DNA of 64,000 bases from Lingula anatina (lineage: Eukaryota; Animalia; Brachiopoda), in the NCBI GenBank assembly GCA_051362555.1, contig CM120649.1, positions 8,494,001 through 8,558,000 on the forward strand, read 5' to 3'. This document shows positions 24,664-55,597 of the stretch, piece by piece. The notes below the pieces were generated by a model. It had not been told where the DNA came from. It saw only the letters and a list, made by a program, of their open reading frames with translations, and did not search any database. The position numbers and the translations under genes are program-made. Each line of letters begins with the position of its first letter. The first letter of the stretch is position 1.

Positions 24664-24902
24664 ACTGAGGGGAGTTCCCAATAAAACTATTGTCCTATGT
24701 AGTTCGATCCAACTTTGCAGGGACACTGAATGCAATTAGATTTACTGAATAACATGCCTCCTCAAGCAGCTAGAAGTTGATTAACTTTTGAGTGTGTTTG
24801 GTCCCACTTAAAAAAATTGAAAAATCTTTCAAAAACCAAGCACACACAAAAGTTGGATAGATCTATGTAGAATGATAGTTTCAATGGGAACATGCCCTCA
24901 GC
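24664..24902. mobile_element. MITE, family A second copy
   Basis: Shares ctgaat.acatgcctcct, gttgga...atgtagaa...gggaacatgcc with 1-262; ends are inverted. Confidence 0.65.
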
Positions 24903-25141
24903 TGTCACTTACTGTAGGATCCATGTCAAGAGATTAAATAGCATGTCAGGATTATGCATTGCGTTCACAGCCATGCCTTCATCAGTTCTTTGTTTCAGCT
25001 TTGTTTCAGCAAACATACAGCAACATAATATATCCATATCATATATTTAAAATTTCAGGAAACTGGATATTGTGCAAAAAATGTTTTATATCCTAGTATC
25101 TTTATCATTGTCTAATCTGTCAATTCCAGCAATTTTATCTA

Positions 25142-28100
25142 CGGTAATGTGCCATGAATTTCGAACAGTAGAAAATAATTAAATTTGGGAAAAGATCGTT
25201 CTGGCCGAAATTCATGAAAAGGAGGTGCTCAGAACTTCCGAAAGTTCGAATTTCATGGAATTCTGTCAATTTTGACCGGAAGTTGTCTGTTCGTCGCTAG
25301 GCCTTCTGTTATCTTCTCCCGACGATCTATTTAGAGTTACCATAATGTATGATTGTGTGAGTGTCGGTAATTGCGACCAAAGGTATACATGTACTTTCAC
25401 CCGATCACTGTGTATGGCCCATAGATAGAGCGGTGCTGTTGTTTAGGGCCGCAAAACAGCATCGTTATCAGTAGTGTCGTTTTTCAAAAGCGATTCTGGC
25501 AGTCAGAAACTAGTGTCGTTTTTCAAAAACGATCCTGGCGCTCAGAACGGGAGTGGACGGAGGGAGAGACGGCCGACGATTAGCGTCTGCCACGGCCAGA
25601 TAACCTTTACTATGGAAGCTTAGTGTTACCGTTGCTCCTTTCCGTGCACTGAAACTGAGACGACAGCCGATCAGTGTCTATGGCGCACGTGCAGGTAGCC
25701 TTCATCTGCGATAAGTGTCTTCCGCGACAAGGTTCGTTGCCTTTACCGTTAAAGTCGGGCGGAGCTTTACGCGCGAATGCGTCCTCATCTCGCCGTTCGC
25801 GGGTCGGTGTCTCCGACGCATACGTAGCCTTCCCTGCAGAAGCCGGCCTCGGCACTACGGCCTCTCCTCCGTGCGGGGAGGCCACTACGACCGCAGATCG
25901 GTATGTGCGGCGCACAGGTAGCCTTCGCCACGGCAGCCGAACTGTGTATTACGGTCTCTCTCCGTCGTGCGCTGCGACCAAGATGACAGCTGATTGTTGT
26001 CTGCGATCAAATATACTAGGTTGGGGGGGGGGGGGGGTGCAGGGCCGTTTTATTTTTATTTATTTATTTTTTTTCGCTCAGGCAACCAGCAGCAGCAACT
26101 GATTTCCTGGCGCATAGTTGCGTCAATGTACGCATTTGAAAAGCGTGTACGTTTTGTCATTGAAACCATCTTCAAACAAACGCGAGAGATAGGTAATCTA
26201 GAGTAAACCGAAAAGGCAGTTTTTATATTCGTTCAAGGGACTGGAAGATCGTCAATAGGAGATAGTGAGCGATCTGAGCGCGACAATAAGCCAATTTCCA
26301 CACTAGTTCAAGGGACTTCGTTACTATATTCGTCAGCAAGAGATTGTCAGCGATCCGAGCAAGCATAGAAGCTCGGACTTTTTGTCCATGCTACATGTAG
26401 AAGGCAATTTTCATGTAGTCCGCAGGATATGGTTTGCTGGTTTGCGACAGGTGCGTAACCAGGCATACGCACGGATACTATAATTTTTTGGCCAACCATG
26501 AAATTATTCTCTTTAAATCTAGTGTACTTTTCAAGGAATATTATCGAAAATCCCCTTCGATTATAAGTTAATGTCACCTGAATGTACAAATTCTCTGTAT
26601 AATTTATATATGCACCATTGTTCTGACACCCTTCTCGTTTGCTTTCACAGAACTGAGGTAAACAATACTAGTTACCATCTGAAGTCCGATCTTAATCGTC
26701 CATCTAGCTGGAACTTGCTTTACCTCTTAATTAGAGGGTAAAGTGCCCTTCAGCTCACAGGTAGCTTTTGTCTTGAGTGTATCGAACGCGATATTTATCT
26801 CAGATAAAAATCTACCTGTGTGTTATTTCAAAGAGCTGCTCCAGCAGACCTGGGGGCACTAGATAAATCTGATCAACGGGCTAAACAAGGAGCCAGAGAA
26901 ACAAAGGAAGATTGATTTTTCCTGCAAAGTTTCAAAGAATTTTGACACGGACTTGATCCAGCTTAACCCTCCAAACTAACGGGGTGGCATGGGCAATTTT
27001 TACAAAATTTACAAACAATTAAACTTAGATATATTACAATTTTATCCTTTAATATAATTTTGGGAAGCATGCACCCGCATGTAAGCTGGGTGATGTCAGT
27101 AAGCCCCTAGTTAAATAAATATACCCTTATGAGCAAGGCTTTTCCCAGCGAACCGTCCAGCCGTCATTTGGACGGCCGCTGACATCACCGGACGGCCTAT
27201 ATTTTCAAAGACGGCTAGACGGCTTGCGACTTTTTTTTGATGACGTCTTGGCTTGTCGGGACAGCCGTGGACGTTGTAAGAAATTTTCTTAGAGTAATTT
27301 GACGTACCTAGCTTTTATGATGCGTCACAGATGAATGGTACTACTTTGAAGTGTACGCTGATATTCAGTCACGACGAAACTACTTCCTAAAGCTTACAAA
27401 ACACAATAAAATGTTTCTATGAACTTTAACTTTAAGATACACATTCCACGCCGTATGCAGCAGTGACAAGAATGACCTTCATGCGGTACAAAACACTAAG
27501 CAAACTACAGGCCAATTTGTGAAAGGGGACACCTTCCGGACCTTCATACGCACGGCAACTGACAAAGCTGATTGACAAAAAGGAAAATTTCAAATTTTCA
27601 GCGAGAGATCGTTCGCAATCCGAGAGAGACCAGGAGGCAATTTTCATATTTGTTAAAGAGGCTTCGTAAGCCAAAGGGCGAGACGAGAACGCAATTATCG
27701 TCAGCGTCGCAATCCGAGTGAAACGAGAAAGCTCATACTCGTTCAGTGGCTTTCGTTTGCGGCATATCGTCAGCCGGAGATCGTTCTCGATTGTTTTTAA
27801 CCCTCCATCCCTCCCCATTGGAATTTATAATTTTTAAAAATATTTTTCATTTCATTTGTACATTTCAAGGGACTTCATTAGCGGAAGATCGTCAGCGGGA
27901 GATCGTGAACAATCTGAGCGAGACAAGAAAGCAATAATGGTAATCTTTATTGCAGCTCTTAACATTGCTCTTTTGTTCTGTTGCTGAAGTCTCTACTGTT
28001 AACAATGCTATTGTGCGCCTCAGCAAAACTACCGATCGCTATCTCACACCGAATATTGCGGTAAAGAAACAACAGCCCGACAGTACAACTCTTAATAGAT

Positions 28101-28417
28101 TCTCCTGTTATCTGAATGAATGGATATGACGATGTTGTTTAGCGTCCTAAACTAACTGTACTGATCGTTATCTTGCACCTTGGGCCGCACACGTAGTACT
28201 CAGGTAAAGGTACGCTAGGGCAACATTGCCGACTGTTAGATCTTTATAAGCGCGAGAATAGCCCGGTGGCCGATTTTAAGGTGTACGAAATTCACGAAAT
28301 GAAGATCGCGCAAAATTGCTTACTGGCCGAAATTCATGGTCCAGAAAAAACTCCAGTCGGCCGATTTTAAGATCGTTCGAAATTCAAGAGCCGTTCGAAA
28401 TTCATGGCACTTTACCG
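25142..28417. mobile_element. 3.3-kb non-autonomous DNA transposon, Tc1/mariner-pogo-like (TA target duplication)
   Basis: TIR cggtaa(t/a)gtgccatgaatttcgaac at both ends (1 mismatch), TA on both flanks, subterminal ggccgaaattcatg repeats, CpG-rich, no transposase ORF. Confidence 0.88.
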
Positions 28418-31397
28418 TAGTTCACTTTTGTGTTAAATGTTGCTAATGGTAGAGGCAGTATTTGTTGGATTTAGTATGTGCTGTTGATTTACAATACATG
28501 TGGAGCTGAATATTCTGGAACACCTCAGCTATATATAAATTATGTCTCCCACATCTCTGGCATGGTTCTACTGTCATCATGTGACTGGACAGTGTTCACT
28601 GGTTCCCAGTACATCCGCACGGTCATTAATGTCACATCTGCTACAGTGACTGTCACTTTAATATATGATGGATTTGAAATAGAACATCTGACATGATAAT
28701 TGGCTTGTCTGAACAATTAAAAAAAAGCATGTTGCCTCTTGGATGATATTCCAGGGAAAAGATTTTGGTTTTAGCCTTTGGGCATATTATTTGTTTATTA
28801 TTTTGACATTATGGGATGATAATTGTCACACCAAGTCGTAAAATAATATATTCAGTGTAATTAGGCATCTCAAGCCTGGTAATAGCTTTAGAAGTTTCCT
28901 CTGTGGATAAAGGTTTGGTCATTCTATAGGTGTCTTTGTGATACAATTTGCCTCTTCACACTCCTGATGTATTTTGCCAAGAAAGGAAGAATCACATCTG
29001 TGTCTGTAACCTTAGTAAAACTTAGTTTATAACAATTTGTTTAGCAATATGGAGATGTGGAAGTTGAAAACATCATGATGATAGTCCTCAAGCTTTTCGT
29101 GACTTATTTTTTTAAAAAAGCATTAATAAGTTACACAACCACAGTATGTTACATAAGAAAAAAATACTTCAGGAAGTCACCCTTAATATCTGATATTTTA
29201 AAACTGCAGCTGGTGAGGTGGTGCCACAAGTCTGGAAAGACAAGCTGGCAGTTCCTGTCTACTTAGATGATAGATATGCTTTGGTATAGTACAAATGGAG
29301 AATTTTTAATCTATAAGATTAAATACAGAACAGGTACCAATTAAGGAATTAATGCCCCCACCCCACCTCTTCCCTTTTGAGAAATGTACATACTGTACTG
29401 TGTCATGAAAGTTGACACTGCTTATATATATCATGTACTACAAATGGGCCAAAACATGCTTATTTAGACTGGCAGCCATTTTTGGGTCAATCAGTGCATT
29501 TTACATTAATTGCAGCCAATACAACTTTAAGCCATAAAATTTTCACAATTCTGGCATCTTAACAGCTTGAAGTCTGGTGTTTTTTCAATATGCAACTTGT
29601 AGGGCAAAGCTAGACAAAGTGCAGAACTGTGGCCATTCTCTCTCTTTTTAACTTAGGGCAACATTATCCTAAGAAAAATCATTTGTTTGCAAATTAGTTA
29701 CTTTTTTATATAATAAACATTAGTATGTTGGTCCTTAAAGTTTGTGTGTAAAGTGAAGCAGGAACAAGATTTTTATATTGAAAATTAGCTCAATTTCCTC
29801 ATTTACTAAACTAGTATCAGCTATGAAATCTCTTGTTGCATTTTTCTATTTACCATCAAAATTATACTGTACATTTATTTAAATCTCCTTTGTTTTGAAA
29901 TTAAAATATTGCATCATATAAGTTAACTATATGAGCTTAATAAGCTCTCTACTAATTACTTTAAACAAAAACATTAATATTGATATTGTGTGCCATAAAA
30001 GTGCTTGTTAGCAATTAGCAGGCTATAAGTAGATTATTTAATGATTATACTGGGCATGAATTCAACAAGTTCTCAATTATTGCTTCACTTTCACAAAATA
30101 AATTGTAAATCATCCTTGTTAATTGTCACCAACTGACTACTCAAATTTCTGTTACTGTGTCACCCAACATGACACCCTTTGGTAAGTTTTGTAAAATACA
30201 GTAATTTAACAGTGTAATTATCATAATTATAACTGCCGTAATTGGATAACAAAAATACTTAGTACAACAGCTATGCCCCTTGTTAACATAATATCAAGCG
30301 TTTATGTTGACGCTATGAAACTTGATATATCTAGGTCACATGAATATTGTAATGATTTTTAATTATTGAGCATGAGGGTGAGAAAGAGTTTGTATCATAT
30401 TCTGTGTTATAGCATTTAGCAGCACAGATTTAAAGTACACTAATTTCTGCCCCTGCAGTTAAAGGCTGAGTTACAATTTTGATCAAGAATGCTGTGAACA
30501 GTCAAGTTTAATATGATAATTATTTCTTTATTGCTGGACATCACAGACTTTAAGCACAGACTGTTGTCATGGCAACGGCACCATCTGTGGCCGGCACAGC
30601 CTCTGTGTCACAGTGTTCATTGCAGCACATGTGGTGTAGCTAGAGCTCAACCTACCCCTCCCAGCACAGATATGCACAGAATGTAGCTGGAGAAAAATAG
30701 CTAAGATGTTTCCTAGGACTCTGAGCTATGATAGAAAATTATCTCATTTTCTATCAGATATGTTATTGTTTAGATATAGAAGTGGTACGCCATGACAAGA
30801 GATATGGAAGTGTCTTAGCCATTTGGTCACCTGTCACAGCTATGATCTCCAACAGCACATATGACACTGATTGTCTTCCGTATTGACATACTTGATGCTT
30901 GTAAGGATTTCTGCTGGTATATTGAGCAAGGATTATACTTCATATTTCATATAATACTACACAAATAGCAAGCAGCTTGTTGGAAGCCAAGTCTCTTATA
31001 TAAGACATATATGAATGTGTCATAATACATTAAGAGAATCTAATATAGTATTACAGATGTGACATTTGTAAATGTAGTCATTTCAAGCGCACGGGACTCT
31101 CACTGGAACTTGATTCACTCTATGTCTGTGTGTAGTGAGGTTGATGGCCAAAAACCTGAACTAGTAACTCCGTTATGGAGGGATTACTTGGCAGTGTGTG
31201 ACAGGCCTTGGAACAAGACATCATAATCCTTGTCTTCTGCTTACCTTGGACAAGACGTACATTTTCTAAAAACTTACATCAGGAAATGAAAAGTATTCAG
31301 ATTCTCAGTGATAAGCTGATTTTGGTAGAATTGAACACAGTTGACTTTACTGCTTGGCTGCCATTGATTAAGGTAAACTCCAAGTGAGTAACGGATA

Positions 31398-34300
31398 ATG
31401 AGTTCTTTAAGTGCCACTGAACAATGTAGCTTCTTGAATGAACTGAAGGCGGCACTCAAACACAAGACAGACCAAGAGACGGAGAATGACAATAAATTTG
31501 AAAGAGATTCTGATGGAAAGGAATGCAATGGAGAGGATGAAGGGAAAAGTAAAGAAAAGACCAGTGAAAATAGTGTAGACGCATGTAGCTCTGTATTGAA
31601 AGTCAAAGATGCTGTTCAAAATGCAGAACGGATTTTAAGTGCACATAGGCCTATATACCAAAAACGTCCAACTTCCAAAACTATTTACCAGTCGTATAAA
31701 AATGGTAGTCACACATCCAATGACAGCAAAGCAGCAGATAATTCTTCCAGCCATTATAACACTAGGATTCTGTCTCCAGCCAAATCCGTGATTCATCTCT
31801 GTCAAATTGGAAGTTCTAATGACAGTGATGTGGAGTTTCAGAACCTTGATGTCAAACATTCTAACACCGTGCCACGCACTGAAGCTAAGACCAAAGGATA
31901 CATGACCCCCAGCACTCTGTGGCAAAAAGAGGGGGGTGGCTTGTTTGAGGAGCTGAACAGTGTGCTGAAGCATAGGCAGGAACACTCACGAGATATTTAC
32001 AACAAACTGGAGGACTTGGAGAAGGTGAAGTCAGGGAAAACACTGACGTTCATAGGCGGGGCAGAGGTGGTTTATAGCACTCCCCATACTTCACCAGAGA
32101 CTAAAGCAAAATCCACAGAGAAGATGAGTATTCATTATCACTGCTCTAAAATACCCTCATCTCCTGGTAATGGTGGCCTGAGGAGTAAAATTGAAAACTT
32201 CAATAAAGAACCACCTAAAATTGTAATTTATGACATTGGTGATATAGACAAAAAGGGTAATAATGAGAAAAATTCTAATCAAACAGAAAACACCGATTGT
32301 GTTCTCAAAGGTCAAAAGTCTGTGCAGCAGCTGCAGAAGGCTATTGAAAACAAAATTGGATTCCTGCCAAAAACACCAGCACAGGTGGGTCCAGCTTATC
32401 GTAAAAAGGCAGATTTCATACCTAAAGTCAAGAATGGTTCAGCAAATGGTGTAATCCATAATGAGGCTGCCAATTCTTCATATGGGATAAGAAATTCTGT
32501 GCCTGAAGCAGAGAAATCATATCATAAATATCAAAATGGTACCGAAAAACCTTCTATGCATGTAGTTAACGGTGGTGAAGTGAGGAATCTGAAAACTATT
32601 CAAGACAGGCCACCCAGTCCACATTCTGGGACATTGCTGTCCCAGCTGGTAGACTCTGTGAGACTCCAGGTGGCAGACCTTGACTCAAGCCTGTCTCGGG
32701 AGACAACAGGGGATGTGTGGAAAAATAATGTAGAAACTGGAAGCATATCCAGCGAAGTTTCATCTGAACTGAGTTCCAATTCCACCATCACAGAGCTCCC
32801 AAACCTCAAGGAGGCTAGAACAGCTTCTAACAGCTTGCTTCCTGTGGTGTCTGATTCCGAGGGTTCCAAAATAAGTGAGACCAGGACCAAGCTTCATTTA
32901 CGCCCTGATGAGGAGTCTCTGACGTCTGTCACCCCCTGTGAAGCCTCACCTGTCCTGACACCTAAAACAGTGCCACTGCCACCAGTGTCATTCAAGGACG
33001 AGATCCGCAGGAAAATTGACCTTTGTCTGAAGTCTGCCCCACACCTAGAGGGGATGTCCACACTGGAGGGACACCAGGCTCTGGAACACCAGGCTCAGCA
33101 GGCAGGGCACACTGGGGAACTGAAGAGTCCAAGCTTTAAACCTTCCATCTATGTGCCATTGCTTCCAATGCAGCAAGATCACAACAAGGTAATGCTGCAT
33201 CATCCTGCTGAGGACCACACAACCCCTACAGTGACCCCCCAACTACATCCACCCCCTCCAGGGAGGCAGGGGAACAGTCAGGAAACTGGCTCTGAAAACC
33301 TGCAACAAAGTCCACAATGGCAACCATCGCAGGGACTGCTTGCTCCATCACAGCCACCACATGAAGATCATGTTGATTCACAAATACTCCAAGATTCTAA
33401 GGACAATTCCTCATCATTATCACTCAGTTCCAGTTCCACTCAGTCTGCCAAGGCTCAGTCTGCCTCCGCTCAGGGGCTGCTGGTACAGGAACTTCAGGAA
33501 CAGTTAAGGCACATGCATAAAGGTGGAAGCAAAGAAGATGACAAAACTACAAAGGTACTTACGGAGACAGAATCCACTACATCCAATTCTGAGGTAGAAT
33601 TCCCAGAAGGTTACATGACTTATCCATTACCAAACACATCTAAGCAAAAGTCTATGTCAGACCGAAACGCATTACAGAATCTTTTGGTCACTCACTCTGG
33701 GGAGAGAATACCATTAGATGGCACTGAAAACAGCTTCATTGCAGGTCAGCAGTCGCACCATGGTCCTTTCAGTCGTGCAAGTCCAGGCCACTGCACTGTG
33801 CCATCTCCCACCTCTTTCCATAAGAACTATCACCACATGAATAGCTTCATGAACCAGCTACAGCAGAAACTGGAACAGAACAGGGTTGGGAAGTCACTGG
33901 AATCTCTCAGCAAGAAAAAAGGGAAGAAATTTGATTTTAAGCGTGATCGTTCCTTAAGCTGTGACAATCTAGTAGATCAGGAGAATGAAGCCAACTTTGC
34001 TCTCCCCAATGTAGATTATGATCCTTCCGGTGGAGAACGAAAGCTTCAGAAGAGTGCCATTTCCATGGAGTATATTAACAGACAAGACTCCGATATAGGT
34101 CCTCTTAACCAACCTCATAAACAGATGCTGCAAGAGAAGCCTAGCTTATATAATACGTGGACTGCCCTCCCAGGTAAAAAGGCACGTGCTAAAAATAAAG
34201 CCAAACTGAAGCGCTTAGAAATGCGTCGCACTCTTGAGGACAGTGATTCATCAGGGACACCGTTGTTTGAGGGGGCAAAGCTCAGTGTAAAGAATGATGA

Positions 34301-34734
34301 GACGTATCTGGACACGCCATTCAAGAGGGAAATCCGTTCCCGTGCACGTTCCAGTGGACGAAGCTGTAGGGAGATGGTTAAGCCTCAGTATCGTTGCAGC
34401 ATGAACCGAAGTTCCATGCGTACCATTGGAGGCAATGAAAGCATCCACAGCGCCCACTGCATGTTTCTTAATGACCCTGTGGAACACAGTTCTGATGGCG
34501 ACACAGAGAGCTTGTTCCAAGAGATAGGGCAGTTTGAACAGCAGGTTATAAACTATGTGAAACAAGGGGACTTAACACAGTCTAATGACTCCATTCGTAG
34601 TCGTTACCAGCAGCAGATGGACCCATCCCATATCTCAGTCAGGACAGGGGGACTGTTCCGCAACCTGGCCTGCTGTCTCCTCTGTGACACCTACAGCTCC
34701 TCACTGGCCAGCAGGAGATTGAGGAGAAGACGAG
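31398..34734 (+). CDS. Large low-complexity coding exon (~1,112 aa), probable alternative first exon of the filamin gene; ORF runs to 34796 if unspliced
   Basis: 1,132-codon uninterrupted ORF in AT-rich intron, same strand; in-frame stop just upstream of ATG; phase-1 donor CGA G|gtgggg at 34734, same donor hexamer as bona fide exon 47902. Confidence 0.75.
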
Positions 34735-35134
34735 GTGGGGCTTACATTTATCTCTATATATTGGAGGCCATTCCCCTCTCTCATTGTACATATTGATACA
34801 TTGTAACACAGTGATTTCCCACATTTCATGCTGTTCCACTTCAAACCAACTGCCACACCCATACCACTCGGTATGCAGGCATTGTGCCTGTCAGCAATAT
34901 GCTGAAAGATTAAACAGTTTGTTTTATCTTTTTCACTCACAACCTTTATCACAATTCCCAGATGTATAGGGATCATATTTTTGAAACCAACATATAAGTA
35001 TTGCTTTGTCATAAAACGGATTGCTGCATGTTAAAATTAACTAACTTATACATTTAGTATCTGAATTAGGTTTATATTTTATTTACATGGGTGTTGATGC
35101 TGTGTAGAGTGAAATGTTGATTTGTTTGCTGTAG

Positions 35135-35191
35135 GTTATGACATCAGTAATGAATATGATAACCAGCTTCACTTCTACACCACCATAACAG
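35135..35191 (+). CDS. Tyr-rich micro-exon 1 (GYDISNEYDNQLHFYTTIT), 57 nt
   Basis: ctgtag|GT ... CAG|gtactt, phase 1-1, open. Confidence 0.65.
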
Positions 35192-36199
35192 GTACTTGTA
35201 CTTGTAGTATATATTGTGGGGTTGTGGCTGTGGAATCATGGTGGACCAATTCACACACAGTGGGGCGTGTTGTGTCAGTTTAATTTATTTTCACTATATG
35301 CTGGAAGCAGAGAGTGGGGATATAATTGATGGGGAAGGTTGAAAGATATTTTGGCAGCTTTTGGTGGTTCGGTTAATGGCTCCATCATTGTTTGTGTGTG
35401 CTTCAGTTGAGTCATTTTGGGGAATGTAGCTATCAACTTCTAAAAAAGGTTGTTTCACACATATTTTTATGATTTTCTCTTTTTTGTGTGGAAAAGAAAG
35501 TTTTGAAATTATTGTTATATTTTGTATGAAGTGTTCAAACCCTGGGAATTAAAGAGTAAAGGATAGGTATTTTGGTTTATTCCCATTTATGCAAGTGTAT
35601 GTTGTGGACATTTGCCTTTTATCAGCACTGTGTTTGATCTGCTTGTTCGTCTGCAGTAGGTCACTATATGTTAAGTACTTTGGTTTAAGTCTCAAATTTT
35701 GTTTCATATCCAAGTAAAATGTTGCTTACTCATGAAAGATTGACAGATAGAAGCAATCAGTTGGGCAGACTAACAGACAGTCAAACAGACAGACGGACAA
35801 ACGGGTGAGAGAGAAGTGTGTGTGGGTGTGAGTAAATGTTGCAATTTTAGGTATTTGTTATTGCCTTTGAAATCCAGTAAATATGCATTTCTTTTTATGT
35901 TAGGCTGAATTAAAATAAAAAGGTGAATTACTTCTCTGACTTATCAGCCATCAGTGGTGTTTCACCCATGACAGTGGTCTGATGGTTTCCTGGTTGGTTG
36001 TTCATTTAAATATTCTAATACTCTGTACTGACAGATATGAGCAATGCTGGGTACAGATATGTTGTTATAACGTAAAATATTTCATTTTTATGACAATTTA
36101 TCGTATTTTATGAGGATTTGTACACAAATGGAGGAATTATCAGCCATTCTCTTATATTCTAGCATCATAAACACATTCCCATGTTTCTCCCTTCCTTAG

Positions 36200-36292
36200 G
36201 TTCCCCATTCTTACAAGAGGCGGATGGTGCCGGCATGAAAGTCTATGATGACATGTACAACATGTACGGCAGCCATTATGGCAGTACCAGAG
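36200..36292 (+). CDS. Tyr-rich micro-exon 2 (GSPFLQEADGAGMKVYDDMYNMYGSHYGSTR), 93 nt
   Basis: ccttag|GT ... GAG|gtagta; begins with filamin GSPF motif. Confidence 0.8.
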
Positions 36293-37371
36293 GTAGTACA
36301 CTTGGATGGGATATTTCTGCTTGTATTTTTTAATAATAATAATATGTCCTCCCCTGCCCTTCCTTATATTTCTCTGTTCTTGGTGTCCTACTTACGAACA
36401 GGTTTGCATTACCATCTGCTTGAATTATGCTGCGATGGCCAATGGAGCTGATGGTTTCTTCAGATGTTGGCAAATTTTTTGAGCTTTTAAGATGAAGGAT
36501 TTAAAACACTGTCACTTTAGAGTCAGCCAGGGTTATTATGTGCAGGAAGCAGAATTTATAAAGCTTTCAAAGCCTGGGAACCCTGTCCTTGCTTTCAAGT
36601 TCCAGAACCTACTTTACCTTGCTTATATCCAGTATGAGGCAGCTCCTGAGTTGTTCATGGGTATCATGGATTGTGCATTTTTATAGTCAAGCAATCCTAT
36701 AATGTTGCCATTTTCTCATTGATCTTTAAAATGTTTTGATATCTGTCCCCTTGTTAGCATTATTTCCATTGCCTTGCATTTCCTCCTGATCTGTTGGATT
36801 AGTTTTGTCTAACAAGTCTTTCCTTTGATGTTCCATTCAATTGGTTCATGTTTTTCAGCTTGCTCTTTCTCCCATATTCCCATTTGTATGTTTTAGATTT
36901 CATTCATTTTATAATACTACAAAAATTCAGCTTATTGCATTACAAGCCATCAAAATTACATGTTCATAAAGGAATGGGATTAAAGGTAGAGCCCATATGT
37001 GTTTCCCTTTACCACCAGGTGGCAGCATTGGTGCATGTGTTCCTGCTTCCAGTTGGAGAAATATGCCCTTTTGCAATACTTGGTTTTGATGTGTGCTTAT
37101 AATTATGTGTATTCATTTCTTCCTTTTCAGCCATGGTTTAAAGGCATTGATTCAAAAATAATTTGGTGAATTATATCCACATTGCAAAATGTTTGACATA
37201 GTTATATTATTTATTGGTGAAAATTATATCATTATTGGTAAATTTTTTTATTCGCCTTTGTATATTGCTTGCATTTCTATTACTTGTTTGCATGTACTTT
37301 GTAATTATAAATTCAGTTAATTAAGACTGCATGATTAATTATCCTCTCCCCAATTCCTCCCATTTGTTTAG

Positions 37372-37452
37372 GGTCACCTTTCATACAAGAAGTACGCGAG
37401 CAGCCCTTGTATGCCACAGTGCAACGCCAAACTATAGAAACACAGAGGTCAG
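37372..37452 (+). CDS. Tyr-motif micro-exon 3 (GSPFIQEVREQPLYATVQRQTIETQRS), 81 nt
   Basis: gtttag|GG ... CAG|gtaagg; GSPF start. Confidence 0.82.
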
Positions 37453-38485
37453 GTAAGGTCAAGGTCAAGCCTCAGTATCATATGGAGGCAACTCAGACCA
37501 GCCAGTTCGTGATGTTCATGTTTTTTCTATTTTTATTCTGACTTTCAGCTCTGCTGTATCGCTGGTGTAAGATGCCTTTCTTAACGCTTCCCATGGTGTA
37601 CTACTGCTTTTGCTGAGTGCTGTTCTAACCCAGATCTTTACTCTGAACACTCTCATATGATGTATTCATATGTATGTGATGTCATATACTTTTTTTTATT
37701 TAGACATCTTTGACTAATCTGTTGATTTCTTGAATATGTTTGCAGTGTGAATTCTTAATAACTTATGTGTCACTGAAGTTATTCAGATAAAACAGGGTTG
37801 CAGACTTCTCCCTTTCAATAATTCAATTACAAGAACAGCATTGTCAGATGAAGATGTTTTTACATTTTCCTTCATTGCATTCTTGCACGTCACAAAGATG
37901 TCGCACATGCAAGAACATGAAAATCCCTAAAACATTGGACAGCTTTTTGTGTCACTTGGATTTAGCAAACCATGTGTGCTAACATTGTAACATAATATGA
38001 GGCAGTAAGGCTCTCTGCACAGCAAGCAGTATACATGTTACATTTATAAAATGTACCAGCTAACATATAAGTAACCCACAAGAGATTTTCATCACTTTCA
38101 CAGATTTAGACAAAAGTTCAAGTTACTCTTTCACATAGTAACCAATTTATAAAGTGGTCAATCTCTCAAATAAGTGTAGTGTTATTAACTGAATTGCCAA
38201 GGTGTGCATGTACTGCTTACTGTGAAGAGGGCCTCACAAAATAGGTACTACTACATGTAACATCTCCCAACATTCCACTAACATGAAATCCCACTCTCAA
38301 TACAATGTGTAGATTAGACCTATCTTCAGTATTAATCTATTGATGCTGATGATGGGACTGTTACAGCATGCAATATGGCTGTTCAGTGCATTGCCTGTAT
38401 TTTATACAGACTAACCTATCATCTTACTAACTGACTCTTTTGCCATTAAACAAGACTTCATATTTATGTGGGGAAAGCTTTCTAA

Positions 38486-38536
<51 letters not shown>

Positions 38537-38920
38537 TTGTAAAACATTTAGCATTGTCTGCACTGTAGTAATAAATATTGGATAAATTACTGTAGTATCA
38601 TTAATTTATTGAATTTTTGAAAACTCTTTCACTAAGTTAGATTCATTAATTTAGAATATTTCAAACTTTGATTGATTGTGGTATTAACTAGTATGTGACA
38701 TTATACAGACATTAGGACTAAATATATTTATATATAATAGCATGTTCTCTCCTTGTATGCCAGCATCACATGGAGAAGATATTGAACAAGTAACAGCCTC
38801 CTTCATGTATATACTGGTAGTTAATTGTTAATATTTCCATTTCAGTCTGAATTTTGTACAGGGATATCTGTATTCATTTTTAAGTTGTCTCTTTTGTGTT
38901 TATCCCATTTCTATGAGTAG

Positions 38921-39016
38921 TGCCACAGGTTGAGGACATTTATTCCACAGTGCGTCCAACACACGAAGGCATTTATGCCACTTCCAGACCCAGTGTTGAA
39001 GAGCCAGGGGGACAAG
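38921..39016 (+). CDS. Tyr-motif micro-exon 4 (VPQVEDIYSTVRPTHEGIYATSRPSVEEPGGQ), 96 nt
   Basis: pyrimidine tract..gagtag|TG ... AAG|gtagtc, phase 1-1. Confidence 0.72.
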
Positions 39017-39808
39017 GTAGTCAGGGTCTCCAGAGAAACCCCGGGGAATTACCCTGCATGATGTGTTGAGCATGACCCCCAAGGTTTGACACGGAACAGA
39101 ATTGTTTGCTTCTTGGTTTTAATAAATGTCAAAGCAAATGAATAACCACCAAGGTTTGCAGATAAACATTTCTGAACAAGATTTGCTGTAAGCATCTGTA
39201 TTTCACGTCAGTATGGTAGTGGATTTTGTAGGATGGTCTTGCATGAAGTGGAAAACCAGTAGAAAATGAAACTATTTAAAATTATACAACCATAATGTCC
39301 CTTCTATCTATGTCTCCCTTTTTGGGCATGTGGATATGTAGTCCTGGAGGTCAAAGAAATAGGCCACAGTGGTATAAGATAGGGCCCTTCCTCCCCAACC
39401 CCAGTGCTTTTAGACTTTTATATTATCCTAAATCAGAAATATGTCATAAAATGGCTAGGCCATAGCTTACCTATACTACAGCTTTTTGTAATTACAGACA
39501 TCAAAAACCCTTTCCCATCTTTATTATAACAAAATGTTTTCATATCATTTTGTTGTGTGAAATATTAGAACTAAATTCTTCATTTGTTAATTCATATCCA
39601 TGTAATCAACAGCAATTCAATTCATACATAAAAAAAAAACATCACATTTTCACAAATGTGGACATAACTCTATGGTATTGCACTAGCTGTGACAGCTGTC
39701 ACATTCTGCAGCAATTTGTCTCATTTTGGGAACATTATTTTATGGCATTGTGCTAGTTGTGACAGCTGTCACATCCTGCTGCAATGTGCCCCACTGTCTA
39801 TTCTCCAG

Positions 39809-39856
39809 GCAGGCGACAGTCCATGTACTCCACCAACAGGGAGAGTGTGTATGGAG
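39809..39856 (+). CDS. Tyr-motif micro-exon 5 (GRRQSMYSTNRESVYG), 48 nt
   Basis: ctccag|GC ... GAG|gtaggc. Confidence 0.75.
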
Positions 39857-40263
39857 GTAGGCACTGCAACCACATTCTCAGAACCATTTCCGTTGTATAA
39901 TACCTTATAAACTTCCAGTAGTCTCTCTTTACTCAGCTAGATGAAACCAGTCCTTTTTGTTTTTGTTGTTTAAATAATTGATGCCCAATGTGTATTTTGA
40001 GTGTGTTTCATTGATAGCTCAAGTGCCTTATTGTGATGATGACAAAATGCATATAATGATCCCTTTTGTAAAAAGTTGCTGTTTTGGTGTTATTCTGAGA
40101 ATACTCGATGATAATGAATTCTATACTTTGACAGCATGTAGCTCAGGTTGATTTGATAACAAAGTGAATATAAACATTGATAATTTGATGACAAGGCAAT
40201 GTAGACCAGAAGCAGTCTGTAGCTAGATATGAGCTGATTGTTTAAGTTATTTCTAACCTCCAG

Positions 40264-40332
40264 GAGGGACAATAGTAAGAAGAACAAACATGTCTGTGTC
40301 TGGAGAGAACCAATTATATGGACACAGGCCTG
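40264..40332 (+). CDS. Tyr-motif micro-exon 6 (GGTIVRRTNMSVSGENQLYGHRP), 69 nt
   Basis: ctaacctccag|GA ... CTG|gtaaga. Confidence 0.7.
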
Positions 40333-40626
40333 GTAAGATGGTAGTGTGTGCATGTGCGTCTGTGGTGTCTTTGATTGTGTGACTGTGTTTGATGTATGTA
40401 TGTGTGTGTGGCTGTGCATGTATGTGTATCTGTGTATATGCGTGCACATGTCTGCGCATGCATACGTGTGTGCACGTTCCAAATATTACATGCAGAGATA
40501 GATGAAATGTTATAAAATAGATAGTAGGTATTCTCACACAAACCTTCCTTTATGTTAATTAAGTTAAAATTTTATGATTCTCAAATTACCCGTATTGAAG
40601 TCTACAGAGTATAGTTTCATGCTCAG

Positions 40627-40689
40627 GTATCCAGGCAGTGAAAGCATCCACTAACAGCACACTTTATACAGAAGGGATTTATGGAGAAG
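40627..40689 (+). CDS. Tyr-motif micro-exon 7 (GIQAVKASTNSTLYTEGIYGE), 63 nt
   Basis: gctcag|GT ... AAG|gtgaga. Confidence 0.7.
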
Positions 40690-41243
40690 GTGAGAAGGGA
40701 TTCTGGCTTCTTTCAATGGTCTATCCTTAAAATAAACGTTCTGGTTATCCAAGTTTTAGCCAAAAGTGCCAAAACTTTTGTTATCAAAAGTACTTTAATA
40801 TACAGTACCAAAGGAATTTACACTGTTTAACTTGAACTTGCGGAAGTTATCTACAGACCAAAAATGAGACTGATAATTACTTTTATTTCCCAGATTAGTT
40901 ACATCTGAAGTCATTTAGCTCTAACATTTTTGCAGCCTTTGTATCTTGTAGTTTACTTTGTTATACTGTATTAGCTGTCATCAAACAGTTCTGATTTCAC
41001 TGTGGATCTTTATAAATATTTTGCAGCATCAGCTGTATATAACTTATTATTTAATAACTTAAATCTAAATGCCTGGAGTGTCAGTAAGAATGGGTTCATT
41101 AATTTAAAAGATATTTGATAAACTGTTAATTTGGGATGTCACATCCAAACTTTCATTGCTGCCTCCTGAACCTAAAAGTAAATATTTAGTGATATTCAGT
41201 GACAGCATGCCCCTATTCTAATAACTGCTGATTGTTCCGTCAG

Positions 41244-41300
41244 GTCAGAGACAGCAGAGACATCTGGTGACCAGGGTATACGGGGATGGTATCTATGAAG
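41244..41300 (+). CDS. Tyr-motif micro-exon 8 (GQRQQRHLVTRVYGDGIYE), 57 nt
   Basis: cgtcag|GT ... AAG|gtagca; YGDGIYEG mirrors AYGDGLYKG of exon 44157. Confidence 0.75.
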
Positions 41301-41620
41301 GTAGCAGATGTTATTGACAAAGACACTTAAGAACACACAGTTAGAAATATTCATAATTATAATGTGAATCTCAGGACATAGTTTGATACACATATTGATA
41401 AAGAAATTTTAACTCAAAGTTTTTTAGCACACAAAATTACACAAACAAGTAAATAGCTTTTATGCTTTCAGAACAAAATGGATTCAATAATTCTATCTAT
41501 AATCAGACAAAACAATACCAAAATTATGTATAACAAAAAAATACTGCAGTGTATGGGTAAGTATTGAGACATGTATGGGGTCATTTGATATGTTAATTGC
41601 CTATGTGTGACCTATGGCAG

Positions 41621-41686
41621 GTAAACAGGGCCAGCGTCAGGACTACGGGACCATATCACGGAATGTCACTGAAAACATCTACGAAG
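41621..41686 (+). CDS. Tyr-motif micro-exon 9 (GKQGQRQDYGTISRNVTENIYE), 66 nt
   Basis: tggcag|GT ... AAG|gtattc. Confidence 0.72.
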
Positions 41687-42562
41687 GTATTCTCTCTCTA
41701 CGAATAGTTACCTGCAACAGTAATGTTTCCATCTATATACCTATACTAAGCATGTTTATGGTATATAGATCTGCTTTCAGCTCCTAGCAGATCTTCATGC
41801 ATATATACAGTTTATAAAGTTCCAGTGGAATTCTGCATGGTTATTCAGCTTGGTTGACAATATCTGTTGTTGCTAAGTATCATATATCCAAACTGTCCAA
41901 ACTCTAAATTAAAGACCTCATTTTAGTAAAAGCCTTATGAGAAAATGTCACCCATCTTCGAGAGAGATCCATGTGCTTTCCCTGTATAGCACCTCCCCTC
42001 CCCCAATTCCTGATCTAACACTACCAAAGTACCCAAATGTATTCAAAGTACCCATCACAAAGAAACAATTAGAAATACTTTCACTTTCCATGTCTTTAGG
42101 CTCGTTCAGTTCTTTCTCCAGAAGCTGAATGAGTGCTTGCACCATTTTAGTGGCCACCATGGCAATGTTCCAGTTAGTATGCATGTCAATTCAATATATT
42201 GCCAATACCACATTCCGTTAGCTGGTATATAGATTCCATATTTATGTACTCCTGATAAGTGTCATTTATTGCCAACTTCCAAATATTCCCTCTTCTGTCA
42301 CAATCAGACAAATTGGGATGTTAGTCTAACGCATGCTCCACCCTGTATTATAATGAGACATAAATGCTGTGGCACATTACGAGCACTCTTATTATTAGAC
42401 CTGTTGACGTAGTAATGGACAGTTTGATTCCTTAGTTTTTAGAAACAGTAATTTAAATGTTGTCTTTATATAATACTATTATGTTTATGAACATTGATGC
42501 ATTAGAAGTTGTATGGGAGATGACAGTGATGGTGTGTTATTATGATGTGTGTCTTCATTTAG

Positions 42563-42625
42563 ATTCTCCACTCAGACTAGAGTTCAGAAGGTTGTCTTAT
42601 ATATATGGCAATGGGATTTATGGAG
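42563..42625 (+). CDS. Tyr-motif micro-exon 10 (DSPLRLEFRRLSYIYGNGIYG), 63 nt
   Basis: atttag|AT ... GAG|gtaatc; inside ORF 42457-42792. Confidence 0.75.
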
Positions 42626-42948
42626 GTAATCACACTAGTCTAATTACAAATATGCTGTCAGTGATTTATAGTTTAACTGCCACTGAGAATACAGCACACA
42701 AAGTGCAAACACAGTCAGCAATGTACTACTGTATTAGGGAAATCCTGAACCAAAAATTATCAAGTACACATTATATAACCCTCTGTCTTTGACACATCTG
42801 GAACAATGAATAATACTTTTATTACGCACAAACTTGGAAGATCCTCAACATTTCCGTAGTTTTTACACAACTCGCGCAGATTCTATTCTGTGTTCTTGTT
42901 CTGTTCACTATATGAATAAGCTATAACAATAAGCTACTTCGCCCTTAG

Positions 42949-43017
42949 GACTTCCTCCAAGAGAAGAGAGTATATACAGCACAACACGCCGTACCAGTTA
43001 TAGTTCACAATATGGAG
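42949..43017 (+). CDS. Tyr-motif micro-exon 11 (GLPPREESIYSTTRRTSYSSQYG), 69 nt
   Basis: ccttag|GA ... GAG|gtaagg. Confidence 0.78.
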
Positions 43018-44020
43018 GTAAGGAAATGCCCATCTCCAGCCCTGCTGTCAACCCCTGACCTCCTGGCAAACATTTACATAATTCAGGTTTGGGAGTTCAT
43101 CCCCCCTTGTATGTCCTAGTCCACACCCAGTCATCTCCTGAATCTGAACATATATAGAAACAGTTAAACTACAACAAACAATCCCAAATAGATTACTGTT
43201 CTTCCAAATGAATAGCGTACTGCCATATATGCATGTTTACTAGTGAAGTTAATTAAACTGTATGTAAGGGTATGGTGGTCTCTAGAAATTATGCAATCTA
43301 CAATTCATACCAGTAAGTTAATCTCCCTTCCAAACCCTGTAGCCTTTTCTTGATCATTCTTTTTGAAAGGAGATTTTTTTATACTGGTTTGCAAGCATGG
43401 ATATTCAACCCATAGTATCTAGTTGAGAAGTATGGATAAAGTTTCCATCCCAGTTTGTGTTGAATTTTTTTGTAACATGAACAGCGATAGCTTTGAACTT
43501 TTTCCTCCGACACCTACTATATTGTTTGCATGATTTAAAAGGTTTTTATATGGAAGGCTTGCTATTATTTATATTGTCAGAACTGTCAAACTCAGTCTTG
43601 CATAATATAAACTTAAGCATTAACAGTAACAAAGCGAGTTAGTTTGTGAAAAGTGTTATTGTCAGGAGAGCGTTGTTGTTGGTCCACACCAGGTGTGCGC
43701 AGTGAAGTATTGTTTTAACTTGAAAATTAATTCTGATACCTTTATTCTAGGTGATTGAAAAAAAATTATAGCTTTAGTTCCCATTGTGGCAGTTAAAGAC
43801 ACATGCAAAGATTTTGCTGATATTATGGTCTACTACCAATCTTCACATACATATTGATTTCTTTAGGGAATTTTTACTTCCAGAAACCGCATTGGTCTTC
43901 TTTTATAATTACATGTTTATTTGAACATACTTTCAGGTCAGATTTTGCTTTTCATTATTTTCAGGAATTTTAAATGTGTTATCTATAAAATTTTATATTT
44001 ATTTCCTTGGTTTCTTTTAG

Positions 44021-44029
44021 GAAATCAAG
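44021..44029 (+). CDS. Candidate 9-nt micro-exon (G-N-Q)
   Basis: long pyrimidine tract tttcttttag|GAAATCAAG|gtaacg, phase 1-1. Confidence 0.4.
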
Positions 44030-44156
44030 GTAACGTATGTACAATTCTGGTTGGTAATAAGAAATATGAAAAGAAAGTGTTTTCTATGTTTCTTACAACT
44101 AAAGGCATGTTAAACCTGCTAGATCATGTGTCAGCCATGTCATTTTCTCTTGGCAG

Positions 44157-44426
44157 GTTCTCCCTACACACAAGATGTCCGCAGCATCGCCCATATCAGC
44201 GCGTATGGTGACGGACTGTACAAGGGCGAGGAGGACCAACCCGCGACCTTTATGGTGGACTCCAAGGGCATGAAGGGAGATCTGTTTGTGCAGGTGGATG
44301 GTCCCAACTCCATCGCCAAGTGTAACATCGACCCAGAGAGAGACGGGCTGTATGCTGTCACCTATGTTCCCGTGGAGGTGGGCATGTATAACATTCAAGT
44401 GAAGTGGAACGGGATGGAGATACCAG
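44157..44426 (+). CDS. Filamin exon (GSPYTQDVRSIAHISAYGDGLYKG...WNGMEIP), 270 nt
   Basis: tggcag|GT ... CAG|gtaacc. Confidence 0.93.
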
Positions 44427-44917
44427 GTAACCCATGCTCAAACACCCATACCATCTCTACATCATGTCCGTAGCAAGTTCTGTGGAGTTTAATATTGATT
44501 CATAGATCGAAACAGAAAATGTATTATACCAGCTGTGTGAAATGTTGTAGAATTCTAGATAATGCAAGTATTGCAATAAGAGTGAATGCTACAGATTGAG
44601 CAATAGAGACTCAACAGAGACAACAGTTTTCTCAGAAAATATCAGTCTCTATCATTGTTACTTAATCTTTATGATATTTAATCCTTAGCATGTACTGTTT
44701 AAGCCATGCACCTTTACATGTACATCACATATCCTTGAAGTTTGTTTATTATGAAATTCTAATCCCTGAAAAAGGCACCAATGCCGAAGCTTGGGCATTT
44801 ATACCAAATTTTAGTTAATCTTTATAGATGTTTTTTGCTCGATTCATTTATTTCTTAGACTGAACATATCAAATGACTTAAACTAATGTTAATCCATTCA
44901 TGTTGTTGTCTTTGCAG

Positions 44918-49244: not shown

Positions 49245-51522
49245 CTTAAAAAGTTATGTACTTTAGACTCTCTCACAATCACACACACACACAAGCACAC
49301 AAACAAAGCTACAGTTAATTGTCATTACTGCAACCTCTTTCTGGAATGCAAGAACTGAGGGTTATTTTTTGTACACATAATATATACATTGTATAGCCTT
49401 AAATTTAATTTTATCTAACTTATTAGTATAGTTAATGATTATCATGCATGTGATATTAATAGACATATTTAAAAGTTAAAATGTTTCTGCTGAAGACAGC
49501 AACAGGTTTATGAATGAATGACACCATTGGAAAATAGTGAAAGTCAAAAAAAGTTAAAAGCACGGCTCACAAATTCTGTTTGTAATTGTTGACATGTTTC
49601 CATTTTGTGTAGTTTTGTTTGCAGTAAGGGATTTGTGCAACAAAAATCTTTCTCAAAATCTCTGGGATAAATAAGCAGGGCCAAATAGAAAAAATACCAA
49701 TTAAAATTTGAATCATTATTGCAGATACGCCAAAGTTAGCTTGATCATGCTCTGTTATTTTACTTCAGAATCTGTGCAATTAGTTTATGAACACAACTGA
49801 AGTGTTTTGGTATGAGTGTTAGGGTTAAGATATTGGCACATTTTATTTCAACACCATTATTTTAGTAAATCATAATTCCATAATGCATTTTGGGCGTCAA
49901 GTTGGCTCTGTTTTGGTGAAAATATATATATCCATGCATATCTCATTGCATTATGGGGTTTATTAAGTTTACATTCAAACGATATCTTTTTATATTTATA
50001 CAGTTTCTGTTCATTTATTTTATTGTTACTACTCACTTTCATAATCACTGAGCATCATTTTCATACGTGTGTTATATTGATTAACTGCGAGGCACATGAG
50101 GCATAACCAAGCTTATTACAATTTTCATATGCAGTGTATTATAGTTAACTAAAAAGTCAACAGTTATTGTTAGGATATTGTCACAAAGAAGAGATTTGTG
50201 TCTGTAGCTAACTGTAGTAGGCCTGGGGTGTAAGTATTGCACATTTTTATTTAACGGGTCCTTCAAACATTGAGCAATTTTGTCAGATAAAGCAGTTTTG
50301 TTAGAACTGGTTGAAGGTATTGGAAAGCACTGGGCAAAGATGTAGCTTGATTTACTTTTATATACCAAGAAATTATTGAGAATAATCATAATTTCTAGAT
50401 ATCATAAAAATGATGAGAAAAGCACTCCAAAATGCCAAATTATGTACCTATGTCTATATTTATGTGTATTATTCAGTGTGCGCATCATGAGAACCAACTT
50501 GTCAAAGGCTTACAATGAGTACATGTTATTTTATCCTGCGTCATGTGCTGTAAAGGGCCATAGGGACAGCTAGAAGATTTGCACTTTAGTGACATTCTAA
50601 CTGTGAAAACAGAAAGGACACAACTGCACAACTGTTAGCAATGGAAGTCTGTGGATTAATGGTAGAGCTGACTGGCTGTTGTATATGCTCTGTAACTCAG
50701 ACTAACAAAAAAGAATTATGATATGGTTTATACTGGACTTTGTATTGTATTCTGTTAATGGTGACAAATGCTGTGTGTTACTATGCTTGTAACAAAGATC
50801 TGTGAAATCAGAAAATTATTTGCTCCACTTTGACGATATTTTAGTTACGGTGTTTACAGACTGTTTATTTAAAAGGGTGTAAAATGATGAAGAAAGAATT
50901 CATGAACTATTTGTGTGGCACAAGAACTGCACTAATCACTTATTTTTTTCTCTTAGCTGAAAGCTTTAATGTACACTTTAAGATAATACTATTTAGATCA
51001 AAAGCAGTACAACCAAAAAAATGACATTATTGTATTTGTACTCATCAGCTTCTTTCTAACATAGTAATTATCATATGATGCTATTCGTAAGATATGTATA
51101 CTGTTGATATTGATGGAAGGCAGGTACAGGTACATATATTACACACACATTACATTAAATTGCTTTTAATATTGTGAATCGTGTGCTCATCTTTGCTTAT
51201 TGCACGTATGCTGTATACGTGTAAAATGTATAATTCATCATTTAATGGAAATCTACTGACCCAGCGTTTATTCTTATATTATAATTTAGGATAAAAATTG
51301 TTAGCTAATAACGGTGAGTGTCGGCTCTTACCGCCTTGTCTGCTGCTTCCCTCCCAGCTGCAGTTGAAGTCTAATTCTAAACTAGCTGGATGTTGAGTTT
51401 CGCTAATTGTCCTGTATGGGAGGGAAGTAGCAGGTGTTATTACCACATACTGTTAGATAACAATTCTCTATCCACAACTACTCATAAATAACAGCCTGTG
51501 TACTCTGCTCATCTGCTTTTGC

Positions 51523-51528
51523 AATAAA
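51523..51528 (+). terminator. Candidate polyadenylation signal of the filamin gene
   Basis: AATAAA ~2.3 kb after the stop, near where CpG depletion ends; not unique evidence. Confidence 0.3.
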
Positions 51529-55550: not shown

Positions 55551-55557
55551 TATAAGA
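55551..55557 (+). promoter_or_regulatory. TATA-like box of the secreted-protein gene
   Basis: tataaga 47 nt upstream of the signal-peptide ATG. Confidence 0.5.
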
Positions 55558-55597
55558 ACCAGCGCACCGCGTGTGAGACAGCATACAGAGACGCAGG

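Follow-up and report, generated by a model that had tools for sequence, protein, structure and literature searches.

The brachiopod Lingula anatina carries, in a 64,000-nt stretch of its genome (GenBank assembly GCA_051362555.1, contig CM120649.1, positions 8,494,001 to 8,558,000 of the forward strand; the whole stretch is referred to here as the window and its own numbering is used), a filamin gene that on sequence comparison appears to be of the jitterbug/FLN-2 type. A 19.8-kb intron of this gene, located between an upstream constitutive exon (U) and a downstream constitutive exon (C), contains 11 short segments (E1–E11), and we found genuine alternative exons among them, which are partly annotated and mostly skipped. 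In our preferred reading, to which we assign a probability of about 0.55, these are in-frame alternative exons that were born by repeated duplication of the start of C and would encode a predicted disordered linker, rich in Tyr and RRxS sites, ahead of the last five filamin repeats, where it would probably act as a phosphorylation-regulated binding patch. The probable derivation from the head of the next exon, a proposed strand constraint on splicing and a junction shared across spiralians are the points likely to be new. No published report of a Tyr-exon array in Lingula filamin was found in the open-licence literature on Lingula filamin and microexons, jitterbug, exon duplication and the tyrosine phosphorylation of filamins.

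The exons and candidate exons are listed below; P0001, P0025 and P0026 are Lingula protein models and X7 and X9 are runs of RNA reads.

U, 24197–24370, + strand: upstream constitutive exon encoding most of a filamin repeat and stopping before its last (G) strand; phase-1 donor; matches P0001.
E1, 35135–35191, + strand: 57 nt, YDISNEYDNQLHFYTTIT; the weakest candidate, with splice scores of 5.7/3.8, no motif and a GC content equal to that of its flanks; in no model.
E2, 36200–36292, + strand: 93 nt, starts with GSPFLQE (repeat G strand), four Tyr; in P0025; head-profile score tops 500 of 500 shuffles.
E3, 37372–37452, + strand: 81 nt, starts with GSPFIQE, contains PLYATV; in P0001 and P0025; main upstream partner of C.
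E4, 38921–39016, + strand: 96 nt, EDIYSTV and EGIYAT; uncertain acceptor; GC content 0.52 versus 0.37 in the flanks; similar to E5 and E11 (p 0.004 and 0.002); in no model.
E5, 39809–39856, + strand: 48 nt, RRQSMYST and ESVYG; in P0026.
E6, 40264–40332, + strand: 69 nt, ENQLYG; in P0026.
E7, 40627–40689, + strand: 63 nt, LYTEGIYGE; in P0026; depth 2.5 in X9 (within the intron background) and 0 in X7.
E8, 41244–41300, + strand: 57 nt, VYGDGIYE, close to AYGDGLYK of C; in P0026.
E9, 41621–41686, + strand: 66 nt, ENIYE; in P0026; joined to E10 in three X9 reads.
E10, 42563–42625, + strand: 63 nt, DSPLRL...RRLSYIYGNGIYG; 21-residue alignment with the head of C; E9–E10 joint; in no model seen.
E11, 42949–43017, + strand: 69 nt, ESIYST and RRTSY; donor score 8.8; no joint, background depth; in no model seen.
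C, 44157–44426, + strand: downstream constitutive exon with the GSPYTQD strand, AYGDGLYKG and then the next filamin repeat; the duplicated heads probably derive from it; its best bin has a read depth of about 49 in X7 and 30 in X9.

Sequence features and use of the segments

All 11 segments are bounded by AG acceptors and G|GT donors, are free of stop codons and have symmetric (1-1) phase, as do the matched exons of the gene, whose other matched junctions are all phase 1 (26 acceptors and 27 donors were used in the splice matrices). Together they comprise 762 nt, or 254 codons, with exactly 25 Tyr; the lengths, splice borders, phase and estimate of about 25 Tyr given in the initial annotation were all recovered on recalculation. 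Tyr makes up 10% of the array residues versus 3.3% in the remaining protein, and Ile, Leu, Val or Met precedes 17 of the 25. The exons contain 13 matches to an acidic/hydrophobic-Tyr motif, including a single exact ENIYE and no exact EPIYA, as well as RRxS sites (E5, E10 and E11), and in most of them the GC content is raised over the flanks. Some splice sites are weak: the acceptor of E4 scores −0.9, below all 26 training acceptors, and that of E10 scores 1.4, while the donors of E2 and E9 score 1.0 and 1.6 (versus 6.0–13.3). A phase-0 acceptor with a score of 2.0 lies at position 38929, 8 nt inside E4, and E8 contains a second in-frame donor at position 41288.

The splice features alone prove nothing because about 11 such loci arise by chance in 9.3 kb. 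With matrices derived from the splice sites of this gene and thresholds lowered to retain all 11 segments, the region 34800–44140 yielded 19 loci that combine splice sites, symmetry and the absence of stops, compared with 11.4 ± 3.3 (maximum 21) in 200 Markov-3 simulations. When the Tyr motif was added, there were 12 loci versus 0.94 ± 0.97 (maximum 4) in 200 simulations, and none on the reverse strand, in 24400–31300 or in 49400–64000; this test is partly circular, since the motif was written after the fact from the exons themselves. Two of the 12 motif loci lie outside the 11 segments, and E1 lacks the motif. The view that the array is no more than chance structure in a random intron would fit the number of symmetric stop-free segments expected by chance, of which E1 may be one. 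However, seven of the 11 segments are found in independent gene models, the joints of E3 to C and of E9 to E10 occur in reads, and the count of motif loci is well above the simulated maximum, so that this reading is refuted for E2, E3 and E5–E10 and is extremely improbable for the array.

Among the gene models, P0001 (XP_023932625.1, ‘filamin-C’) includes E3, the older model P0025 includes E2 and E3, and P0026 chains E5, E6, E7, E8 and E9 into C. An array described in the initial annotation as hidden is thus to a large part (seven of 11 segments: E2, E3 and E5–E9) present in public Lingula protein models. With the spliced reads, which support E3, E9 and E10, the number of segments with outside support as exons rises to eight; E1, E4 and E11 have none, the first two of them being upstream of the region to which reads were mapped.

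RNA reads were mapped to 40480–44480 from four of nine runs (X1, X4, X7 and X9; 6–30% of each run), of which X7 and X9 were informative (X1 gave two mapped reads and X4 gave eight). Loose read ends 5′ of C match the end of E3 with one difference in 41 reads from X7 (agreement 0.98) and 22 reads from X9 (agreement 0.89). The joining of E3 to C with E4–E11 skipped is therefore the main form in the samples examined. E9 is joined to E10 in three X9 reads. The check for junction reads proposed in the initial annotation was thus borne out for E3–C and, thinly, for E9–E10, whereas E11 showed no joint within the mapped region. In X7, there was no depth on E7, E10 and E11, and E9 was covered by unspliced reads. 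At least four exon chains were seen, namely E3–C, E2–E3–C, E5 to E9–C and E9–E10, and skipping is in frame, with E4–E11 left out in the E3–C reads and E2 optional between two models. The deepest non-exon intron bin of X9 (about 4.9), at 42088–42221, represents unspliced RNA, DNA or an unrecognised exon.

Probable derivation from the head of the downstream exon and the predicted linker

The head of C consists of the last strand of one filamin repeat (GSPYTQD) and the start of the next (AYGDGLYKG). Both parts recur in the array: E2, E3 and E10 have strand-like starts (GSPFLQE, GSPFIQE and DSPLRL), E7, E8 and E10 have GIY-type ends (EGIYGE, VYGDGIYE and IYGNGIYG), and five exons end at their donors in Y[GE]G, while E7 ends in YGEG. 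When compared with residues 1–30 of C, E3, E7, E8 and E10 gave shuffle p values of 0.0035, 0.004, 0.001 and 0.0005, respectively, and the other seven exons gave 0.06–0.9; for the same four exons the best local match in the 1737-aa protein is the head of C. At the DNA level, with the acceptor included, E2 and E3 resemble C with p 0.002. With a profile of 13 non-Lingula heads, E2, E3 and E8 each outscored all 500 shuffles and E5 outscored 489 of them; against a whole-protein null, four of 300 shuffles were as good as E8 and none of 300 as good as E10, whose best match in the whole protein is again the head of C. Resemblance to the head was thus found in at least two tests each for E2, E3, E8 and E10, more weakly for E7 and E5, and not for E1, E4, E6, E9 and E11. 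In addition, E3, E4, E5 and E11 are mutually similar (p 0.002–0.006 in five of six pairs). There are no direct DNA repeats of at least 20 nt among the 11 exons (among 20 repeat families listed), so the exons are not recent copies.

We infer an old series of exon-head duplications, which is firm for about half of the exons. The acceptor and the first 15–30 codons of C would have been copied and a donor gained at a Gly codon, giving an exon with a GSPF start and/or a G-x-G-[LI]-Y-[GE] end, and the copies would then have decayed. Since several exons resemble the head of C including GDGLY, the ‘GIY’ tyrosines were likely inherited through tandem duplication of exon heads. The all-phase-1 structure of the gene makes each exon copy frame-safe.

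Local duplication of exon ends does occur in this gene, as two fresh tandem arrays copy exon ends together with their donors. At 15493–16281, a 77-nt unit repeated 10.2 times (98% identical) copies the 3′ end and donor of exon 15375–15563; each unit contains a pyrimidine-rich CAG, a 50-nt stretch and a donor, and resembles a nascent exon array with 27-nt spacers. This array could be a variable-number tandem repeat or an assembly artefact. The second array, at 18292–18601, has 7.4 copies of a 42-nt unit that copies the 3′ end and donor of exon 18175–18312.

Any subset of the exons would keep the frame, because all of them, in keeping with the remaining junctions of the gene, are phase 1-1. The choice of the first one is probably restricted: the coding sequence of U leaves out the final (G) strand of its repeat, and whichever exon is spliced to it would likely have to open with a ‘GSP[FY]’ strand to provide that piece. 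Entry would then be via E3, sometimes via E2 followed by E3, and with E2 or E3 as the entry the strand of C itself would become part of the linker. Later exons can apparently be included as well, on the thin evidence of E9–E10 and the single model with E5–E9. As E4–E11 are mostly skipped in the samples though includable, their use is likely restricted to certain tissues or stages, and in the transcript they would be preceded by E2/E3 or by an internal first exon.

The initial annotation envisaged a combinatorial array, each of the 11 exons being chosen independently of the others for the full-length filamin, with up to 2^11 forms that would tune the number and type of its SH2 docking sites. 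The existence of different chains, of which at least four are known, agrees with that idea, as do the symmetry of all 11 segments, their richness in Tyr preceded by Ile, Leu, Val or Met, and the identity of ENIYE with the motif of Tarp, such motifs occupying duplicated disordered segments according to the part of PMC3593179 that was available. The free mixing of 2^11 forms was not supported, however. Only E2 and E3, and loosely E10, carry a strand that could complete the upstream repeat, which disfavours such mixing; in X7 and X9 alike, almost every read that enters C comes from E3; the later exons are found in a single model, as an unbroken E5–E9 block; E1, E4 and E11 lack outside support; and descent from GDGLY accounts for the motifs. 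We regard fully independent inclusion as improbable.

The insert is positioned at the boundary of two filamin repeats, and in this the hinge location given in the initial annotation was confirmed. An AlphaFold2 model of U-E2-E3-C placed the E2 strand in the repeat, with the predicted local distance difference test (pLDDT) mostly below 50 for residues 93–148 and above 90 for the repeats; E5–E9 were modelled as structureless, at pLDDT 23–30. The pLDDT of the motif region as a whole (23–50) was obtained with an alignment that has no homologue rows over the insert. If included, the block would form a flexible linker that carries as many as 13 acidic/hydrophobic-Tyr motifs. EEIYGE is the optimum sequence for Src. 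The ENIYE motif of Tarp and the EPIYA motif of Pragmin and CagA are described in the available portion of PMC3593179 as Src/Abl substrates and SH2 ligands, and by analogy the Lingula motifs may have the same roles. Phosphorylation of Tyr and Ser in the putative linker could then support binding of the SH2 or 14-3-3 type. No usable ESM Atlas match was found for the Tyr region. A bolder version, in which a splice-tunable phosphotyrosine array was built de novo, the GDGLY head being serially duplicated into a dozen acidic-Ile-Tyr kinase motifs on separate in-frame exons that are used in tissue-specific combinations, possibly on a short isoform with an unannotated first exon of 1100 residues, seems doubtful to us.

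Several observations weigh against the preferred reading. On the expression side, the three E9–E10 reads may represent one molecule, as the E9 variant rows share one start; the table of splice joints was empty for the mapped reads; and the X9 depths of E7 (2.5), E8 (1.4) and E10 (3.2) compare with 0–4.9 in intron bins and about 30 in C. The short exons also change fast: among the variants counted (there are 50 further rows beyond these), at least six non-synonymous and at least three synonymous ones fall in E8–E10, compared with at least one and at least 14, respectively, in C (Fisher p 0.004), and these changes include the replacement of one Tyr by Asn in E10 and the loss of one Ile at position Y+3 in E9. 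The duplication tests were not uniformly positive: E1, E4, E6, E7, E9, E10 and E11 scored at shuffle level with the profile of non-Lingula heads, and E2 (58 of 300), E3 (81 of 300) and E7 (23 of 300) were not significant against the whole-protein null. E11 matches another hinge, in exon 21785–22009, better than it matches the head of C (protein level, 0 of 300 shuffles; DNA level, 312 of 500). The predicted lack of structure is weak evidence, since low pLDDT is expected without homologues over the insert, and the AlphaFold2 model was rejected as a guide to the G strand in use, as it is alignment-driven: the input alignment had put the strand of the homologues on E2, so its placement there is not independent. 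Finally, none of the 59 non-Lingula orthologous sequences (at least 48% identity over the tail, out of 338 homologous proteins gathered) contains the Tyr-motif insert, so that the conservation of the Tyr array in relatives sought in the initial annotation was not found; this absence is weak evidence, because the set is made up largely of cluster representatives and gene models, and among its names no further brachiopod and no phoronid was seen.

The constitutive exon 21785–22009 has a non-repeat hinge of its own (LPRESS...TTRRTSY), which is E11-like in protein alone.

Some of these data would suit a reading in which the later exons are tolerated by-products, i.e. noise-level splicing that remains in frame since all introns are phase 1, with the Tyr kept by descent. 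Low inclusion of the later exons in reads, the near-neutral look of amino-acid change in the linker, the lineage-restricted array, the local exon-end duplications in this gene and the weakness of several splice sites all favour it. Yet the copies are too diverged for a recent origin and nevertheless are all stop-free and multiples of 3; the one indel observed, an insertion in E9 deduced from the read table, is of 3 nt and preserves the frame. Many exons have at least two motif Tyr, the source head having two Tyr near the motif end (AYGDGLY); one model links five later exons together, and the exon GC content is raised over the flanks in most cases. In favour of the preferred reading, two Tyr codons change synonymously in reads from divergent animals, so that Tyr is kept, and ENIYE is also kept. 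We consider the by-product reading rather unlikely; were it true, the locus would be an ordinary alternatively spliced hinge. If, as in the preferred reading, the later exons are used in some tissue, the array would offer a traceable birth of short linear motifs from the exon of a folded domain by partial duplication.

The junction in other spiralians and a candidate short isoform

Among the 59 orthologues, 47 are insert-free at this junction, five have an insert and seven lack the upstream repeat. Two of the five inserts are an extra whole repeat, and the other three belong to isoforms of the nemertean Tubulanus polymorphus, with 140–162 residues at the same junction, no motif matches and a start with a duplicated strand (GFPITQH); a fourth Tubulanus isoform has no insert. 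Four of the seven sequences without the upstream repeat come from molluscs, and in them a disordered N-terminus leads into the same acceptor: Patella vulgata RefSeq isoform X3 (XP_050389012.1) and models from Lottia, Patella caerulea and Sinanodonta. As the Tubulanus inserts and the mollusc N-termini use the same acceptor, this one junction has, judging from these alignments, repeatedly taken in alternative inserts or internal starts, in the brachiopod, the nemertean and the molluscs alike. The mollusc short forms P0016, P0018, P0022, P0230 and P0337 consist of a disordered N-terminus and the last five repeats, and the first three of them share the blocks KKDxGSK...ELxxVLxKR...VFANKxLL.

The intron of the array was not as empty as the initial annotation had it: it also contains a 3.3-kb element with terminal inverted repeats and the following open reading frame (ORF).

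31398–34793, + strand: intronless low-complexity ORF of 1131 codons, with a phase-1 donor at 34734 (score 7.2).

This ORF has a single homologue, P0029 (pairwise BLAST E-value 5e-23), with conserved blocks common to both, and ends in a CCxxC and a basic tail. A search among Lingula proteins of 611–1946 aa gave no match, its exact sequence is absent from the protein collection, and no Pfam family was found for it or for P0029; in the ESM Atlas, its C-terminal part reached a best score of 0.82, which is at the level of a lead. The ORF could serve as the initial coding exon of a short isoform, or it could be a nested gene. One gain is in any case a corrected annotation, as the conserved 1131-codon ORF and E1, E4, E10 and E11 are in none of the three Lingula models.

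A short isoform begun in the intron, perhaps from this ORF, could be the main carrier of E4–E11 (and E1); it would have a disordered N-terminus and the last five repeats and would lack the actin-binding domain. This is compatible with an origin by duplication of exon heads. P0026 has E5–E9 without the upstream repeat, the mollusc models named above join a disordered N-terminus at the same acceptor, the short isoform of Drosophila jbug has four repeats only (bioRxiv 2020.10.13.337626, in the part available), the ORF has its phase-1 donor, and it weakly resembles the mollusc N-termini (ELxxVLxKR; equalled by 19 of 500 shuffles, with an hhalign probability of 28.5). On the other hand, among the reads mapped to 40480–44480, downstream of the ORF, none links it or an upstream start to the array, the start of P0026 is an intronic ATG just before E5 that may be a prediction artefact, P0029 stops soon after the shared CCxxC like a stand-alone gene, and the likeness to the molluscs is only a lead. 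We view this isoform as a tentative possibility, below our preferred reading of alternative exons derived from the head of C.

The host gene and comparison with known systems

Exon C is 100% identical to P0001, and scattered residue differences between P0001 and the window DNA indicate that the window represents another haplotype or assembly. The assignment of the host gene to the jitterbug/FLN-2 type, made in the initial annotation, is supported by a tree built from the C-terminal 530 residues of 17 proteins (composed without Drosophila Jbug), in which Lingula and its lophotrochozoan, chelicerate and amphioxus relatives are split from FLNA/B/C and cheerio with 100/100 support, and by the three CH domains of its relatives. 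Identity is 51–65% to the three-CH group versus about 30% to FLNA/B/C and cheerio. Three CH stretches were detected in five of five orthologues scanned and two in two of two canonical filamins; three CH domains are given as the hallmark of jitterbug/FLN-2 in the accessible text of PMC3143143. In the Lingula model P0025 there was no match to the CH domain, and none was seen within the window. P0025 has 18 PF00630 stretches (tandem filamin Ig-like repeats), and the top Foldseek matches are filamin repeats.

The closest known systems are the jitterbug/FLN-2 filamins themselves (Drosophila jbug and C. elegans fln-2). The host gene groups with filamins that have three CH domains, and for this family the available portions of two sources (PMC3143143; bioRxiv 2020.10.13.337626) describe numerous small exons, alternative exons that keep the frame, internal starts and short isoforms made of repeats only. 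A Tyr-motif exon array was not met in those portions, nor in the 59 orthologues. The Tubulanus inserts and limpet short isoforms share both the gene and the acceptor with Lingula, and the Tubulanus insert also begins with a duplicated G strand, but these segments are unrelated low-complexity sequences with 0–1 motif matches, compared with 13 in Lingula.

The 82-aa insert in domain 20 of filamin C likewise adds non-repeat and possibly disordered sequence to the C-terminal rod; it carries kinase sites, and Ser phosphorylation governs its partner binding (PMC6530996, PMC7244511, as far as their text was available). It differs in lying within a repeat and having Ser sites (Akt, PKC), whereas the Lingula insert is inter-repeat, Tyr-rich and made of up to 11 optional exons. 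We regard it as a functional analogue from a different subfamily and claim no homology.

Schistosome micro-exon genes (MEGs) resemble the array in having many short symmetric exons in succession, whose skipping preserves the frame. In MEGs, exon duplication is documented and the exons are of 36 bp or less (PMC8293314, available part); they form most of the gene and encode host-exposed proteins. The Lingula exons (48–96 nt) exceed that size and are short exons rather than the micro-exons named in the initial annotation, and they make up one insert in a cytoskeletal protein. In-frame skipping of symmetric exons is seen in Lingula too, and at least four chains were observed, at low coverage within 40480–44480 and in models.

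The EPIYA/ENIYE repeats of CagA, Tarp and Pragmin are acidic-Ile-Tyr motifs multiplied by duplication in a disordered region, as is proposed for the array, which has 13 matches and an exact ENIYE in E9. In CagA, Tarp and Pragmin, copy number is set by DNA repeats, and phosphorylation and SH2 binding have been shown; in Lingula it would be set by splicing, there is no exact EPIYA and the motifs are known from sequence.

Elsewhere in the window, a long exon-like ORF at 3086–3904 (273 codons, stop to stop) has a Ser/Thr/His-rich stretch preceding a filamin repeat. Several exons in 3086–15563 match P0001 poorly, and the window and the RefSeq model thus appear to differ in their sets of N-terminal repeats. 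The 3.3-kb element in the intron of the array, at 25139–28420, is CpG-rich, carries inverted repeats of 28 nt at its termini (96% complementary) as well as internal subterminal repeats, and is likely a non-autonomous DNA transposon.

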